A stretch of 41,515 bases of DNA from an uncultured Eubacteriales bacterium (GTDB taxonomy: Bacteria; Bacillota; Sulfobacillia; Fermentithermobacillales; Fermentithermobacillaceae), in contig CAZRRG010000006.1 in assembly GCA_964602455.1 (NCBI GenBank), positions 1-41,515 on the forward strand. Reading direction: 5' to 3'. Under the pieces are notes generated by a model. The model was not told where the DNA came from and did not search any database. It saw only the letters and a list, made by a program, of their open reading frames with translations. Positions within the stretch are counted from its first letter, which is position 1; every line of letters starts with the position of its first letter. Of this stretch, positions 15,163-41,326 are shown one piece after another. The position numbers and the translations under genes are program-made.

Positions 15163-16344
15163 ATGAGGCGGGGGATTTCAGTGAGACTTATGCGAAAGGC
15201 TGCAAAGGTGGTAGCCGCGATCCTACTCATATCAGCGGCTCTGGTTGTGGCGCCCAACTCTCTGGCTTTGGGGGCGCCTCAGGAGATAGACCTGCGCATA
15301 GATGAACTGAACCAACTCCAAGTAGAGATCGACGAGCTTCAGAAGAAACTGCAATCCACAGCCAGCACAGAGAAGTCGGTGTTGGCCGAACTCTCCAAAC
15401 TCGAGAGCCAGCTCGCGCTCGCCAACAAGGAACTAGACTACATAGAAGTCCAGTTGTCCGTCACCGATAGCCAGATCAACAAGACAAAGGCCGAGGTCCA
15501 GGAAACCGAAGAGAAGCTGGCCAGCCAAAAGGCGGCTTTCGACTCCAGACTGCTGAGTATGTACAAGGCCAGCAGGATCTCCTATCTCGACATGCTGCTT
15601 AGCTCCGGCAGCCTCTCGGAGCTCATGGCTCGTATGCACTACCTAAAGCAGATCGCTGTTCAGGACAGCTCTCTCATAGACGAGTATTGTGCCACAAGGG
15701 AAGCGCTGCTGGCGAAGCAGGCCGACCTCGAGGCGTACCAGACCAAGCTCGTTGGCCTCAAGGCCTCCCAGGAGCGCAAGAGGGCAGAGGTCACTAGCCG
15801 GAGTCTTGAGCGCGAGCAGTACCTGAACCGGGTTCAGGCCGACAAGCAGAAGTATGCTGAAGCCTTGGACCAGATGCAGAAGGAAGCCGACGCTCTCAAC
15901 AAGATTATCGCGGACCTTCAGGCCAAAGGTCAGAAGCCACAGGCGCATCCCCTTCAGATGATCTGGCCGATCAGTGGAGGCGGCTGGATCAGTTCCGAAT
16001 ACGGCAGTAGGTATCACCCGATACTTGGCTATAACAAGTGGCATTCCGGAATTGACTACGCGGCGAACCGCGGTACCCCCATCAAAGCCGCGGAGGACGG
16101 AACCGTAATCCTGGCCGGGGTCAACGGCGGCTACGGCAACTGCGTGATCATCGACCACGGCGGTGGCGTCTCGACGCTCTACGGGCACGCGGACAAGCTA
16201 CTGGTGAAGACGGGGCAGGACGTGATCAAGGGCCAGACTATCGCGCTTGTCGGCAGCACCGGGCTCTCAACCGGTCCACACCTCCACTTTGAAGTCCGCG
16301 TAAACGGTGAGACTCAGGATCCACTGAAGTGGGCTAAGCCGTGA
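15163..16344 (+). CDS. Coiled-coil M23 family peptidase (EnvC/PcsB-like partner of FtsEX)
   Basis: Signal/TM segment, ~230 aa of coiled coil, then a C-terminal LytM domain with HSGIDYAA and GPHLHFEVR. An alternative ATG start exists at 15190. Confidence 0.9.
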   Translation: MRRGISVRLMRKAAKVVAAILLISAALVVAPNSLALGAPQEIDLRIDELNQLQVEIDELQKKLQSTASTEKSVLAELSKLESQLALANKELDYIEVQLSVTDSQINKTKAEVQETEEKLASQKAAFDSRLLSMYKASRISYLDMLLSSGSLSELMARMHYLKQIAVQDSSLIDEYCATREALLAKQADLEAYQTKLVGLKASQERKRAEVTSRSLEREQYLNRVQADKQKYAEALDQMQKEADALNKIIADLQAKGQKPQAHPLQMIWPISGGGWISSEYGSRYHPILGYNKWHSGIDYAANRGTPIKAAEDGTVILAGVNGGYGNCVIIDHGGGVSTLYGHADKLLVKTGQDVIKGQTIALVGSTGLSTGPHLHFEVRVNGETQDPLKWAKP

Positions 16345-16352
16345 TTTGTACG

Positions 16353-16376
16353 GAGCGATAGCGGAGCATTCGCTGT
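16353..16376 (+). repeat. Partial REP-like element (stem-loop 1 relative)
   Basis: Shares the 12-mer GAGCGATAGCGG with the copies at 775 and 907. It forms an AGCGA...TCGCT hairpin and starts 9 nt after the M23 peptidase stop codon. Confidence 0.55.
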
Positions 16377-16450
16377 AGGATGTGCTAAGGGGCAGGTGTG
16401 TGGACATAGGGTGTCTAGGGTGTCCGCGCCACACATATGAACCTCAACCC

Positions 16451-16705
16451 GGTCACGCGGTGATCAGTCGGATTTCCTAGGGTCACGGGATGCATATTAC
16501 CAAGTTAGTCATATTCCTTCCCGTGACCATTAGCGGAAAAAGTCGGGTCACAAGGCGCCTAATCAGAGCTGATTAGTTACGACATGACCACACTTTTCGA
16601 CATATTGGCCTTCTGGTGACTAGTGGAAACCCGAAAACAGGTCATCGCATGACCCGTCGAAAACCAAATGGTCATGTCGTGACCATGGGTAGTCATGCGG
16701 TGACC
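16451..16705. repeat. Array of GGTCAY-N3-RTGACC palindromes and half-sites (putative multi-operator or iteron-like array)
   Basis: Exact hexamers: GGTCAC at 16451, 16481, 16546; GGTCAT at 16640, 16670; GTGACC at 16523, 16679, 16700; ATGACC at 16584, 16649. Full palindromes lie at 16640-16654, 16670-16684, 16691-16705 and 16451-16465. Confidence 0.75.
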
Positions 16706-16845
16706 GTTAGGGGTCGGAGTGGCGGCGCACCGGCACAAGCGCTGCTAGATGTATCCCGCTCCCGCCACCCTTGCTCCATTTTCGCCTAGCGGATATGCTG
16801 AGTTGAAAAGGCTCTTTCGCCGCGCAAAGGGGGACCGGTTCCTCC

Positions 16846-17961
16846 ATGATATCCAAGAGACGGGCTATTACCCTGTGTGTTGCGTTCGCTCTGCTGGCTG
16901 CTTTGGCCGGCGCCGCCGCTACAGCTTATTATGTCTACACGGGTCCTGTGGGTCGAATCTACGGCATAGTGAACCTGCTGGACGAGAACTTCTACAAGCC
17001 TGTTGACCGTGAAAAGGTCCTGGAGGGTGCCGCCGGCGGTGTCGTCCTGATGCTGGGGGATCCCTACTCCATCTTCATGAACCCCAAAGAGTGGGAAGAG
17101 TTTAACATCCGGACCTCCGGGGAGTACTCCGGGATCGGGGTAACTATAGGGGTCAAGGGCAGCAGGGTTCAGATCGCGCCTCCCATGAAGGGCGGGCCCG
17201 CAGACGAGGCCGGTCTCCAAGGCGGCGACATTATCCTGATGGTTGACGGAGACACCATACACACCAGCGATGAGGCAGCGGCGCGGATCCGGGGTGAAGC
17301 CGGCACCGACGTGACTCTTACCATTCAACGGGGCGAAGAGGTCTTCGACGTGACCATCACGCGGAGACAGATCGTGGTGCCTGCCACGAACTACTCGATG
17401 CAGGACGGAGATATCGGCTACATCGAGCTCTTGAGCTTCAACGAGCACTCGGCCGCTGAGACGGCTCACGCACTCTCGGATCTCAAGACTCAGGGAGCTA
17501 AGGCCATCATCCTGGACCTCCGGTACAACGGCGGAGGATACGTGGAGCAGTGCAGGCAGATCGCGGAGCTGTTTGTCCCCGAGGGAGTGCTGGTTACTCT
17601 GCGGTACAAGAACAAGCCTGACGAAGTGTACAGGACAACCGGGGAGGGCCTCGGGATGCCGTTGTTTGTCCTGGTCAATGAGGGATCCGCGAGCGCGTCT
17701 GAGATCCTGGCCGGCGCTATCCAGGACAGGGAGGCAGGAATCCTGATCGGTGAGAAGACGTTCGGAAAGGGTCTTGTGCAGGGCGCCTTTGCCCTCAAGG
17801 ATGGAAGCGTGATCAAACTCACAACAGCTGAATACCTTACTCCCGCCGGCCGGGCCATTGACGGCCAAGGACTCGAGCCCAATATCCCTGTGACCGGCGA
17901 TGAGGAACAGTTGGCTAAAGCTTTGGAAATGGCCCGGGCAGCCATTGACCAGGCTAAGTAG
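16846..17961 (+). CDS. ctpA: Carboxy-terminal processing protease (S41 family, PDZ-containing)
   Basis: N-terminal TM anchor, a PDZ segment (GGPADEAGLQGGDIILMVDG), the catalytic region GSASASEILAGA, and KTFGKG. Confidence 0.92.
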   Translation: MISKRRAITLCVAFALLAALAGAAATAYYVYTGPVGRIYGIVNLLDENFYKPVDREKVLEGAAGGVVLMLGDPYSIFMNPKEWEEFNIRTSGEYSGIGVTIGVKGSRVQIAPPMKGGPADEAGLQGGDIILMVDGDTIHTSDEAAARIRGEAGTDVTLTIQRGEEVFDVTITRRQIVVPATNYSMQDGDIGYIELLSFNEHSAAETAHALSDLKTQGAKAIILDLRYNGGGYVEQCRQIAELFVPEGVLVTLRYKNKPDEVYRTTGEGLGMPLFVLVNEGSASASEILAGAIQDREAGILIGEKTFGKGLVQGAFALKDGSVIKLTTAEYLTPAGRAIDGQGLEPNIPVTGDEEQLAKALEMARAAIDQAK

Positions 17962-34926: not shown

Positions 34927-34965
34927 CAAAAGAAAAACGCCGGGAGCTTTACTTCGCTCCCGGCC
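34927..34965 (-). terminator. Intrinsic terminator between the small peptide gene and the regulator
   Basis: Minus-strand RNA: GCCGGGAGC-GAAGUAAA-GCUCCCGGC, followed by G-UUUUUCUUUU. Confidence 0.75.
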
Positions 34966-34977
34966 TCGGAATACCTG

Positions 34978-35196
34978 TTAGCCTCTGCCGATGCTGTTGT
35001 TGACCGGCGGCCAAATGGTAGGTGGAACGTCACCAGGTCCTGCGATGACCGGAGAAGTGCTGTTGTTGACTGGCGGCCACACCGTGGGCGGAACATCGCC
35101 CGGGCCGGCGAGCGCCGGACCAATGACGTCAACAACAATGGCTCCGAACCCAAACAGGAACGCTACGACGAGAAGCAACGCGACCAACTTCTTCAC
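34978..35196 (-). CDS. Small exported pre-peptide (72 aa) with two tandem copies of GPGDVPPT[VI]WPPVNNS
   Basis: GTG at 35196 lies 6 nt after GGGAGGTG; the ORF-track start at 35205 overlaps that RBS. The peptide has a KK n-region, an LVALLLVVAFLFGFGAIVV h-region and a GPALA (AxA-like) c-region. The two 20-codon repeats (35059-35118 and 34993-35052) differ by 9 synonymous and 3 conservative changes. Confidence 0.75.
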   Translation of the reverse strand: MKKLVALLLVVAFLFGFGAIVVDVIGPALAGPGDVPPTVWPPVNNSTSPVIAGPGDVPPTIWPPVNNSIGRG

Positions 35197-35269
35197 TCTC
35201 GGCACCTCCCACTATTCTGGTAGAAATGAGGGTTTGGACAACGCAGTCTGTATATGTCGAGGGCTCCCT

Positions 35270-39143: not shown

Positions 39144-39177
39144 CGCGTGGGGCGGCAGCACGGCAAGAGTACCAAAA

Positions 39178-39322
39178 ACAGCGCCTGGACTTTCCGGCTA
39201 CAGGCCGGGAAGTTGACGAGGATGGGGGAATTCGAAAGATTCGGCGGGTCCCCCACGGTTTGCCACAACCGACAGAGGTCCTTCAAAACCTTCGGGTGAC
39301 CGAAGAACAATAAGGGCCGGGT
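39178..39322 (+). ncRNA. glmS ribozyme (GlcN6P-activated self-cleaving leader)
   Basis: Cleavage-site context A/GCGCC lies at 39179-39184. The conserved core is GAAGUUGACGAGGAUGGGGGAAUUCGAAAGAUUCGGCGGGUCCCCCACGG. The peripheral helix is GGUCCUUCAAAACCUUCGGGUGACCGAAGAACAAUAAGGGCC. It lies immediately upstream of glmS. The 3' boundary is approximate. Confidence 0.9.
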
Positions 39323-39490
39323 GGTTGCCACGCACACTAGCCTTACTTCTCACAGATTATCTACACCATTGGCACCTTGCGCGCATTGGGTCTCTTCATC
39401 CTTTTGGCCCTGTACCAGCCCGACCGGCTCTATCTGCTCAGCAGCATCTGTTTACCGTGGAGAGACTAGATCGCGAAGGGAGCAAACATC

Positions 39491-41326
39491 GTGTGCGGGA
39501 TCGTCGGCTACGTAGGTGATAGAGAAGCCGCAAAGGTAGTATGGGATTCCCTATGCAGGCTGGAGTACAGAGGATACGACTCAGCGGGGATAGCCGTCCT
39601 TAACGGGGACGGTATCAAGACAGCCAAGTGCAAAGGCCGCTTGGCCGATCTGGCCGCCAAACTGAGTGAGCTGCCCTACGCCACTCAAGCCATAGGACAC
39701 ACAAGGTGGGCTACTCACGGCGCTCCGAACGACAACAACGCCCATCCCCATAGGGACTGCACAGGTAACGTAGTGCTGGTCCACAACGGGATCATTGAAA
39801 ACCATCGCGAACTGCGGGAACGGCTCTTGGCAAACGGCCACAGGATCAAGACCGAGACCGACACCGAGCTTGCGGCTCACCTCATAGAGGAGAACTACGC
39901 GGGAGACCTCGCTGATGCGGTGATGAGATCGGTGGCCGAGCTCGAAGGCACACTGGCGCTTGTAGTGGTTCACGCACATGAGCCGGGTCGTATTGTGGCC
40001 TATCGCGAGAAGAGCCCGCTTATCGTGGGCCTTGGCGAAGGAGAGAACTTCCTGGCCTCCGACATCCCTGCCATACTGCCGTACACCCAGAAGGTGCTGG
40101 TTGTGAACGACGGCGAGATCGTGATTGTCCAGAAGGACGAAGTCCTCATCCGCGGTAAGGACAACGGTTGCGTCGATAGGAAGCCGGTCGTCGTGGACCT
40201 CAAGCCCGAAGCCGCCGAGAAGGCCGGTTTCGCCCACTTCATGCTGAAGGAGATATACGAGCAGCCTGAAGCGCTGGATAGGGTAGCGTCCGGGCGGATC
40301 CGTGATGGCATGGTAGCGTTCGAGAAGTCCGAGTTCGGACTCACCGATCAGGAGGTTCGCGGCCTATCGAAGGTATGGCTTATGGCATGCGGCACCGCTT
40401 ATCACGCGTGTCTGGTAGGTAAGACGCTGATAGAGCGGCTGGCGGGGATCCCCGCCGAGGTCATGCTTGCGTCCGAGTTCCGGTACAGCGAGCCCATTGT
40501 GCCTCCCGGTAGCCTATGCGTGGTGGTCAGCCAGTCGGGCGAGACTATCGATACCTTGACGGCGATGCGTGAGGCGCGTGAACTGGGTGCGTCCAGGGTG
40601 CTGGCGGTGGTCAACCAGCCAATGAGCTCTCTGGCTCGGGAAGCAGACGATGTCATGTACCAGCGTGCGGGCCCCGAGATCTCGGTCTGCTCAACGAAGG
40701 CCTACACCACCCAGGTAGCCTGCCTTGGACTTCTTGCGATCCATCTGGGTGCCGTTAGAGGACGACTCACCAAAGACCAGGTCAGGAAGCTTACTTCAGA
40801 CATAAGATCTCTACCTGAGAAGGCGCAGGGCGCTCTTAGGTCGTCCGCCGTCATGCAGCGGCTGGCGAAGGAGATGGCTCAGAAGGAGGACATCTTCTTC
40901 ATCGGCCGTGGGATGGACTACATGGCCGTGATGGAGGGCCAGCTCAAACTCAAGGAGATCTCCTACATCCACGCCGAGGCGTACGCTGCGGGAGAGCTCA
41001 AGCACGGGACGCTTGCCCTCATCGGACCCGGAGTCCCCGTCATAGCCGTCCTGACAGACCCCGAGATTGCGCCGAAAACAGCCTCCAACATCATGGAGGT
41101 CAAGGCCCGAGGCGGAAGGGTAGTCGCCATCGGTTCGGAGGAATGTCTGGCCAAAGTCCATCTCGCAGACGGCGACGTTGCCGTGACGATTCCCACCGTG
41201 AACCCGCTGTTCTCGCCGGCTATCTCGGTCATAGCGATGCAGCTCCTCGCCTATTACGTGGCTCTCGAGCGAGGTACCGACATCGACAAGCCGAGGAACC
41301 TGGCCAAGAGCGTGACGGTGGAGTAG
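39491..41326 (+). CDS. glmS: Glutamine--fructose-6-phosphate aminotransferase
   Basis: GTG follows GAAGGGAG. The Ntn start is MCGIVGY. Two SIS domains are present (VVVSQSGETIDT). The C terminus is AKSVTVE. Confidence 0.97.
   Translation: MCGIVGYVGDREAAKVVWDSLCRLEYRGYDSAGIAVLNGDGIKTAKCKGRLADLAAKLSELPYATQAIGHTRWATHGAPNDNNAHPHRDCTGNVVLVHNGIIENHRELRERLLANGHRIKTETDTELAAHLIEENYAGDLADAVMRSVAELEGTLALVVVHAHEPGRIVAYREKSPLIVGLGEGENFLASDIPAILPYTQKVLVVNDGEIVIVQKDEVLIRGKDNGCVDRKPVVVDLKPEAAEKAGFAHFMLKEIYEQPEALDRVASGRIRDGMVAFEKSEFGLTDQEVRGLSKVWLMACGTAYHACLVGKTLIERLAGIPAEVMLASEFRYSEPIVPPGSLCVVVSQSGETIDTLTAMREARELGASRVLAVVNQPMSSLAREADDVMYQRAGPEISVCSTKAYTTQVACLGLLAIHLGAVRGRLTKDQVRKLTSDIRSLPEKAQGALRSSAVMQRLAKEMAQKEDIFFIGRGMDYMAVMEGQLKLKEISYIHAEAYAAGELKHGTLALIGPGVPVIAVLTDPEIAPKTASNIMEVKARGGRVVAIGSEECLAKVHLADGDVAVTIPTVNPLFSPAISVIAMQLLAYYVALERGTDIDKPRNLAKSVTVE

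Follow-up and report, generated by a model that had tools for sequence, protein, structure and literature searches.

A mirror-symmetric 272-bp intergenic unit with helically phased dyads upstream of ctpA, a candidate dispersed foldback element of an uncultured Eubacteriales bacterium

The stretch of DNA analysed here, referred to as the window, comprises 41,515 nucleotides of contig CAZRRG010000006.1 from an uncultured Eubacteriales bacterium of the Fermentithermobacillaceae (GenBank assembly GCA_964602455.1), and carries ftsE, ftsX, a gene for an M23 peptidase, ctpA, a gene for a PDZ protein and uvrB/uvrA. The M23 peptidase gene and ctpA are separated by a spacer of 501 bp, which is the largest gene-free gap of the window. 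The initial annotation of this DNA, made from its letters alone, had described the spacer as free of credible open reading frames (ORFs), and this was borne out, as the longest ORFs present encode 57 and 53 amino acids (aa) and have no homologues. Within the spacer is an array of copies of the palindrome GGTCAY-N3-RTGACC that is organised as a 272-bp mirror-symmetric unit (Table 1). This array is an acquired insert and not an old operator of ctpA. It seems reasonably probable, though far from certain, that the array is the body of a dispersed foldback element similar to miniature inverted-repeat transposable elements (MITEs) or repetitive extragenic palindromic (REP) sequences, the arms of which carry phased sites for a putative dimeric DNA-binding protein.

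The segment 16451–16705 was found to include ten exact hexamers of the set GGTCAC/GGTCAT/GTGACC/ATGACC (starting at 16451, 16481, 16523, 16546, 16584, 16640, 16649, 16670, 16679 and 16700), the number given in the initial annotation, against about 0.4 expected per 270 bp from the background of the window, the remainder of which has 66 such hexamers in approximately 41.2 kb (1.6 per kb); the clustering is clearly not random. The four 15-bp palindromes previously listed were all recovered in their places, and a fifth, AGTTAC-GAC-ATGACC, was added. The remaining copies had been regarded as half-sites, but some of them have a distant partner with which they form split inverted repeats, the clearest being that at 16481–16490/16519–16528, which contains the half-sites centred at 16488 and 16521. 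In a scan for GGTCAY-N3-RTGACC allowing up to two mismatches, five of the 13 matches in the window fell in the array, including both exact matches. No exact match was present in approximately 120 kb of DNA from relatives, and a single one in approximately 1.3 Mb from unrelated genomes, namely loci with only about 40%-identical CtpA homologues.

The nine site centres proposed earlier (16458, 16488, 16521, 16553, 16582, 16614, 16647, 16677 and 16698) were reproduced, and a degenerate tenth is located near 16437. The nine sites are separated by intervals of 29–33 bp, except for the eighth and last, which measures 21 bp. The helical phasing that had been claimed for them was also confirmed, with a circular concentration R of 0.865 at a period of 10.5 bp (p≈0.001 relative to random spacings). 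Around the nine sites the adjoining bases vary, and the inter-site spacers are unrelated to one another, the array thus not being a simple tandem repeat. Dissimilarity to the boxes of CtsR, which had been pointed out, was verified, and an operator for this regulator was rejected, as no match to the tandem heptad repeat RGTCAAA-NAN-RGTCAAA occurs in 16345–16845 even at three mismatches. From reading of the sequence, matS, which has everted half-sites, CRISPR, the period of which does not agree, and Tn3-type ends do not fit either, and a literature search by motif sequence returned only primer noise and papers on nuclear receptors.

Table 1 Features of the M23 peptidase–ctpA region of the window. 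L087 is the locus of the relative with the 90%-identical CtpA, and L223 is the metagenome contig with the second copy of the element.
Feature	Position	Strand	Remarks
M23 peptidase gene, PcsB-like coiled coil	15163–16344	+	Upstream gene; stop codon 97 bp before the element
Spacer left of the element	16345–16441		Partly homologous to the short spacer of L087
Whole element, 272-bp non-coding mirror-symmetric (foldback) repeat unit	16442–16713		Delimited by homology limits with L223 and by mirror symmetry
Site 1, GGTCAC-GCG-GTGATC	16451–16465		One mismatch; outermost strong site of the left arm
Split inverted repeat GGTCACGGGA (16481–16490) / TCCCGTGACC (16519–16528)	16481–16528		10/10 complementary, 28-nt loop
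Half-site GGTCAC-AAG-GCGCCT, centre 16553	16546–16560		Non-consensus half identical in both copies
Central perfect palindrome CTAATCAG-AG-CTGATTAG	16559–16576		Symmetry axis 16567/16568; L223 differs only at the 2-nt centre
Fifth palindrome, AGTTAC-GAC-ATGACC	16575–16589		Two mismatches; mirror partner of the 16553 site; leads into the best-conserved stretch, 16563–16622
Half-site GGCCTT-CTG-GTGACT, centre 16614	16607–16621		Mirror partner of the 16521 site
Perfect site GGTCAT-CGC-ATGACC	16640–16654		Exact pattern match
Site GGTCAT-GTC-GTGACC	16670–16684		Exact pattern match; identical in L223
Site AGTCAT-GCG-GTGACC	16691–16705		One mismatch; 21 bp after the previous site; mirror partner degenerate, near 16437
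ctpA promoter-like element	16771–16799	+	TTGCTC (16771–16776), 17-bp spacer, TATGCT (16794–16799); from consensus match and conservation
ctpA/ctpB-type S41 C-terminal processing protease gene	16846–17961	+	Downstream gene

The spacings of the sites are mirror-symmetric about 16567/16568, reading 21, 30, 33 and 32 bp on the left, 29 bp across the centre, and 32, 33, 30 and 21 bp on the right, and such mirror-identical spacings place all sites on the same helical face. Within ±125 bp of this axis, the ungapped mirror identity amounts to 52.8%, the maximum of the window, for which the mean is 25.7% (sd 4.2). Each arm has five positions for GGTCAY-N3-RTGACC, occupied either by complete 15-bp dyads or by half-sites, and the arms have mismatches at about 47% of positions, yet the inter-site distances are equal. 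The element has 51% GC versus 59% for the window. A profile derived from both copies of the element, the second of which is described below, matches each copy in reverse orientation, and this confirmed its foldback nature.

The spacer was compared in contigs of the same species and in relatives. Six further contigs of the species, obtained from different samples, carry the spacer at 99.4–100% identity, and the element is hence present in 7/7. The closest named CtpA is that of Candidatus Fermentithermobacillus carboniphilus (65% identity). In all seven relatives with the same gene order, the M23–ctpA spacer is only 87–186 bp long and includes no array; the CtpA proteins of these loci are 90% (L087), 77% (L239), 76% (L090), 73% (L240), 70% (L241), 69% (L091) and 68% (L242) identical to that of the window. 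The window and L087 share 83–84% nucleotide sequence identity over approximately 21 kb with a single break, exactly at 16345–16771. The part of the spacer adjoining ctpA is kept in the relatives, and the array has been added upstream of the promoter-like element, a sigma-70-like sequence that is also kept in relatives and that, from the alignments, is 58 bp downstream of the 272-bp element. On the basis of its consensus match and conservation, TTGCTC-17-TATGCT is predicted to function as the ctpA promoter, and GGGGGA at 16829–16834 is the likely ribosome-binding site of this gene.

As the array is absent from the spacers of relatives, its reading as an ancestral or resident ctpA operator fails, the segment being missing from the orthologous spacer in 7/7 cases including the one with the 90%-identical CtpA. 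The initial annotation had proposed an alignment of the intergenic regions of relatives and had named a lack of conservation among close relatives as a finding that would count against its view of the region; this lack of conservation was what the alignment disclosed. At one of these loci (L240:160–2534, from the relative GCA_053528735.1), the gene for the M23/PcsB-like peptidase occurs in two tandem copies upstream of ctpA. Immediately to the left of the element, where the spacer is ancestral, the window has a 9-bp perfect tandem duplication, TAGGGTGTC twice at 16407–16424, the counterpart of which in L087 is the single related copy GGACTTAGGG.

A second copy of the element was found by scanning metagenome contigs for two nearby palindromes. 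It is located in the metagenome contig Ga0116191_1066613 (L223; 1,692 bp, 59% GC), of which positions 1013–1293 on the minus strand share 82% identity with 16436–16716 of the window across 281 bp without any indel. The limits of homology coincide with those of the mirror-symmetric unit, approximately 16442–16713. The neighbouring genes are unrelated to those of the window and comprise a gene for a short-chain dehydrogenase (SDR) ending at 888 (+) and a DHDPS-like gene with its 3' end at 1317 (−). This copy is thus flanked by converging 3' ends and has no promoter beside it. As in the window, it follows the stop codon of a co-oriented gene. A relative of the organism represented by L223 was also identified (L366; dehydrogenase 88% identical, shared flanks with 84–87% nucleotide identity). 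In place of the element it has a cation-efflux gene, and no palindrome was detected in its 20.8 kb; its gene content also differs.

The two copies agree in which positions hold full sites and which hold half-sites, even the non-consensus halves being kept, and every inter-site distance is the same despite 18% divergence. The best-conserved stretch is the centre, with 90–93% identity in 16563–16622. No further copies were detected with the two-copy profile in the window or in the other loci examined, and blastn of the element against 50,697 phage and 72,556 plasmid records revealed no similarity; the conserved core was also absent from viral contigs. The absence of any net indel between arms that differ at about 47% of positions and between copies that differ at 18% points to selection on spacing, which would fit protein binding on duplex DNA. 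The kept spacing and the helical phasing are taken as the best, though indirect, evidence that the dyads work as protein-binding sites on duplex DNA.

As an alternative, the unit could be a cooperative regulator array, in which the phased dyads are operators of an oligomeric repressor or activator that wraps DNA in the manner of Lrp/AsnC proteins from sites three turns apart and controls ctpA and/or the M23 operon, the copy in L223 being another member of the regulon. The 15-bp dyads have a 6-N3-6 format, their centres are 29–33 bp apart on one helical face, eight of the phased sites are 70–320 bp upstream of the promoter-like element, and the spacing is free of indels both between arms and between copies. 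This layout is like that of the Lrp/AsnC arrays of Escherichia coli ilvIH and pap, where 15-bp dyads about three helical turns apart occupy approximately 250 bp upstream of a promoter. The element differs from those arrays in that it is missing from the same promoter region in 7/7 relatives even though the promoter-like element itself is conserved, and in that the copy of L223 is placed between converging 3' ends without a promoter. Furthermore, the 272 bp are conserved as one unit, including spacers and non-consensus half-sites, unlike independent operators of a regulon, and no gene for an Lrp/AsnC protein or other suitable regulator is present within the window. The half-site is GC-rich and unlike the known Lrp consensus, which also speaks against an array of this type. 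Phased dyads are thus present, as in Lrp/AsnC arrays, but conservation together with a regulated promoter is not, and a regulator array is considered unlikely; the proposal of the initial annotation that a cooperative repressor or nucleoprotein array acts on ctpA was not supported.

Another proposal made initially was a structured RNA. The element would then be a non-coding RNA or a 3'-untranslated-region element, transcribed alone or as the tail of the upstream gene, the many hairpins of which might, for example, protect against exonucleases or act as a sponge for a protein. The predicted fold has an energy of −105.9 kcal/mol with z=−4.1 for the plus strand, and z=−4.3 for the minus strand, relative to shuffled controls, and the position after the stop codon of a co-oriented gene in both loci counts in favour of this reading. 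In addition, a clean compensatory change in L223, 16487 G>C with 16522 C>G, keeps a 10-bp stem, and a second one involves 16459/16646 in an alternative register. However, both strands fold equally well, as any palindromic DNA would, and the element folded as DNA also gave z=−4.3 versus shuffled controls. Two compensatory changes among approximately 50 substitutions are close to chance, and the mismatches of the G.T and A.C types are balanced (8 vs 12 in the foldback pairing, 4 vs 4 in the local hairpins), so that neither strand is favoured. There is no promoter-like site inside the element, and its only terminator-like hairpin (minus strand, 16686–16668) loses the T-run in L223. When the Rfam 15 covariance models were applied to the window at gathering thresholds, only glmS was found, elsewhere in the window, and the search of 16250–16950 for a known family, which had been recommended for this unrecognised element, gave no match even at E≤10. 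With strands that fold alike, no bias between G.U and A.C, and no conserved promoter or terminator, the idea of a structured RNA gained no positive support and is regarded as quite doubtful.

The palindrome itself is used in other contexts. Scans for double palindromes returned 26 contigs of viral origin and more than 120 from metagenomes, and approximately 16 of the 26 viral matches are collagen-like coding repeats. At 16 viral or metagenomic loci (L093, L095, L102, L105, L108, L109, L112, L120, L135, L144, L160, L170, L172, L175, L183 and L196), arrays of GGTCAY-N3-RTGACC with a period of 22–23 bp were found inside homologous genes for proteins of about 190–415 aa. Ten of these proteins were examined with Pfam, and nine have a winged-helix match, which in eight is to HTH_36 (PF13730), while all six examined with PHROGs were assigned as replication initiation O-like proteins. 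These loci make up a family of phage origins in which the initiator gene itself contains the iterons, as in the ori-in-O arrangement of lambda.

The dyads of the element could be iterons or centromere repeats that a phage or plasmid, since lost, left behind from its origin of replication or its partition site, or that were captured from one, and might still be bound by an initiator or a ParB/ParR-type protein of a resident prophage or plasmid. The motif is shared with the O-like genes, in which the dyads are also tandem and helically phased, and the two five-site sets flanking a core resemble the layout of parC of plasmid R1, which counts in favour of this origin. The iterons of the O-like genes are, on the other hand, direct repeats of 22–23 bp within the gene of the protein that binds them, and the element has spacings of 21–33 bp, mostly with a period of 30–33 bp, and unrelated spacers. 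No initiator, partition or other mobile-element gene adjoins either copy, no HTH_36/O-like gene is present within the window, neither DnaA boxes nor an AT-rich unwinding region are nearby, and the phage and plasmid records, as described above, contain nothing similar. Two control palindromes with a composition like that of the motif were also scanned in the viral contigs, and GTGCAY-N3-RTGCAC gave double matches in at least 120 contigs and GCTGAY-N3-RTCAGC in 3, versus 26 for the palindrome of the element. Tandem 15-bp dyads are thus a generic format in phage DNA, some dyads being used very often, and since the control palindromes match too, the shared motif is weak evidence of relatedness and is not evidence of descent from a phage origin. 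From the initial suggestion of an iteron or centromere-like site there remains the analogy of format with phage iterons that have the same palindrome; the absence of an initiator gene, the different period and the similar behaviour of the controls do not agree with it. A relic of such an origin or partition site is therefore viewed as rather improbable.

Other arrays of the palindrome were also observed. In rumen and gut metagenomes, tandem arrays of three to eight copies of a 22-bp unit (TGGTCAY-N3-RTGACCA plus 5 bp) are located in intergenic DNA (L122, L126, L133, L146, L156, L158, L184 at 275–443, and many others among L119–L238), next to ordinary and unrelated genes such as ilvD, tex and those for alpha-amylase, peptidase M28 and adhesins. 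Many of them terminate in a common tail that contains additional GGTC half-sites (...ATGACCAGATTTTGGTnnAAAAACTGGTCAA), and they look like a separate, widespread family of intergenic repeats. One array with a period of 32 bp adjoins murB. Very long arrays with 22–31 copies of the same palindrome are found at L155:1357–2021, L191:1478–1942 and L204:655–1605, two of them with periods of 18/36 bp and one with mixed periods of 22/31/40 bp; no long ORF containing the array was found for L155 or L191.

A decayed remnant of a lost protein-coding gene was also considered. One plus-strand frame has only four stops across 500 bp, and in it the sites read as a repeated G-H-x-(V/M)-T, but such an open frame follows trivially from spacings that are mostly multiples of three. 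There is no gene at this place in the seven relatives, and the two copies of the element differ mostly by non-synonymous changes in that frame. When the spacer was searched by tblastn with all ORFs flanking the other arrays of the palindrome, only short, repeat-driven matches were obtained, which also led to rejection of a pseudogene or coding remnant of an O-like initiator. A search among 1.84 billion representative proteins with the 53-aa ORF of the minus strand returned only low-complexity repeat proteins. A lost gene is thus extremely unlikely.

A dispersed foldback element is the reading that is preferred here. The lineage-specific presence of the unit in all seven contigs of the species, together with a diverged copy at an unrelated locus, leads to its assignment as a dispersed repeat of the MITE or REP type. 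It is like the known MITEs and foldback repeats (Correia/NEMIS, ERIC, RUP, BOX, and bcr1 of Bacillus cereus) in being small, non-coding, imperfectly palindromic and intergenic, in being present or absent at the same site in close relatives, in occupying non-homologous loci, and in its location beside promoters or gene ends, where side effects on expression are possible. With 272 bp it is within the size range of MITEs, which are smaller than about 600 bp, and its short ORFs give it no coding capacity. Non-homologous loci are represented at the bare minimum, by M23/ctpA and SDR/DHDPS-like, and absence was seen in the seven relatives at ctpA and in L366 at the locus of L223. The element differs from these families in its weak terminal repeats, and neither a duplicated target site nor an autonomous insertion sequence related to it was detected; only two copies have been seen. 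To our knowledge, five helically phased copies of one 15-bp dyad per arm with mirror-identical spacing have not been described for these families.

The comparison with REP sequences, bacterial interspersed mosaic elements (BIMEs) and REPINs, which are mobilised by the Y1 transposases called RAYTs, shows a similar likeness. These are clusters of short imperfect palindromes in extragenic DNA, frequently placed directly behind a stop codon or in the gap between convergent genes; they differ from strain to strain and from species to species, and two inverted halves form a larger hairpin. Such elements number tens to hundreds per genome, which also encodes a cognate RAYT. A position after the stop codon of a co-oriented gene is common for REP-like elements, and the element is 97 bp after the stop of the M23 gene and, in L223, between converging 3' ends. 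Its palindromes are of 15 bp with a 3-bp centre and not stems of 20–40 nt. A further parallel is offered by the ends of Mu, Tn7, Tn552, En/Spm and Ac/Ds, where several copies of a short motif extend over 100–150 bp per arm with the arms inverted, a layout that would permit symmetric assembly of a multimeric protein at the two ends; the sites in those ends are asymmetric and oriented, whereas those of the element are dyads, and the element has no TGT...ACA termini.

Several observations weigh against a dispersed foldback element. Only two copies are known, those of the window and L223, with 41.5 kb of this genome covered, and the two could be in two different species. A direct repeat that abuts both ends and would represent a target-site duplication was found in neither copy; the comparison with the empty site of L087 places the junctions near 16438–16441 and 16714–16733 and reveals no duplicated target. 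The terminal inverted repeats are weak (CCTCAACCCGGTCAC vs CCCCTAAC-GGTCAC); the ends of the element, CCTCAACCCGGTCACGCGGTGA and, reverse-complemented, CCCCTAAC-GGTCACCGCATGA, are similar but gapped, and their match is largely the internal motif. The conserved GTAG-like tetranucleotide of the REP class was not found at the feet of the nine sites. No candidate for a transposase, RAYT or other mobilising gene, and no autonomous element with the same ends, was seen within the window, and nothing similar was present in the plasmid and phage collections. There was no empty-site allele among the seven contigs of the species, and so no sign of recent movement. Lastly, substitutions between the copies are rarer in the hexamers than elsewhere (4/60 vs 39/196, p=0.017), but this difference drops to 3/36 vs 39/205 (p=0.15) without the two sites that the search had forced, and the conservation of the hexamers is therefore suggestive only.

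If the foldback element is accepted, it may be inferred that it is mobile, that its dyads are bound by a protein and that the M23 or ctpA genes could be affected. Its arrival in the M23–ctpA spacer would postdate the split of the species from its closest sequenced relative, and it would have been inserted directly in front of a ctpA promoter-like element that was already there. The phased dyads would serve a dimeric DNA-binding protein acting in trans, the most plausible candidate being the protein responsible for moving or maintaining the element. This protein may occupy both arms in a symmetric fashion, comparable to the assembly of transposases on arrays of subterminal repeats. Any effect on expression of the M23 gene or ctpA would then be a by-product, caused by hairpins in read-through transcripts or by the bound protein as a roadblock.

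A more far-reaching view is that the unit is a portable platform for protein assembly, namely a mobile cassette whose sole cargo is ten symmetric phased sites for one dimeric DNA-binding protein, candidates for which could be a nucleoid-organising or Lrp-like protein, an O-like initiator or a partition protein. This is an improbable reading and is kept open because the spacing is strictly preserved, without an indel, between arms that are 47% and copies that are 18% different. If it were true, a large wrapped or paired nucleoprotein complex would be nucleated wherever the cassette lands, and nearby promoters, such as that of ctpA, could be rewired, or centromere-like or roadblock sites could be created in the chromosome.

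Other features of the window were recorded outside the M23–ctpA region. A glmS ribozyme/riboswitch (Rfam RF00234, 91.8 bits) is present at 39169–39328 (+), upstream of glmS (39491–41326). At the left edge of the window, in 69–98 and 485–493 (−), there is a perfect DnaA box, TTATCCACA (69–77), with two one-mismatch boxes nearby; in the whole window, DnaA boxes with at most one mismatch number nine, versus 4.4 expected. The second-largest apparently intergenic gap seems to contain a small unannotated gene, at 34960–35200 (−), for a putative secreted or membrane peptide, as judged by reading of the sequence, in which the internal repeat ...GPGDVPPT(V/I)WPPVNNS... occurs twice; a one-mismatch palindrome at 35036 lies within it.

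The element would thus represent a known kind of object, belonging to a family that is undescribed as far as the collections searched show and with an unusually regular interior. If its assignment as a dispersed foldback element is correct, it would stand for a family of intergenic foldback repeats, hitherto undescribed, from an uncultured, thermophile-related clade of Bacillota near Candidatus Fermentithermobacillus, and not for a case of ctpA regulation. It also cautions against taking every dense phased array of motifs in front of a gene for the operator of that gene, since the array may form the body of a repeat element. Foldback intergenic repeats are useful markers of strain history, and such elements can alter the expression of their neighbours, which in this case are cell-wall and division genes; the conserved dyad offers a concrete handle for fishing out the protein that may bind it.

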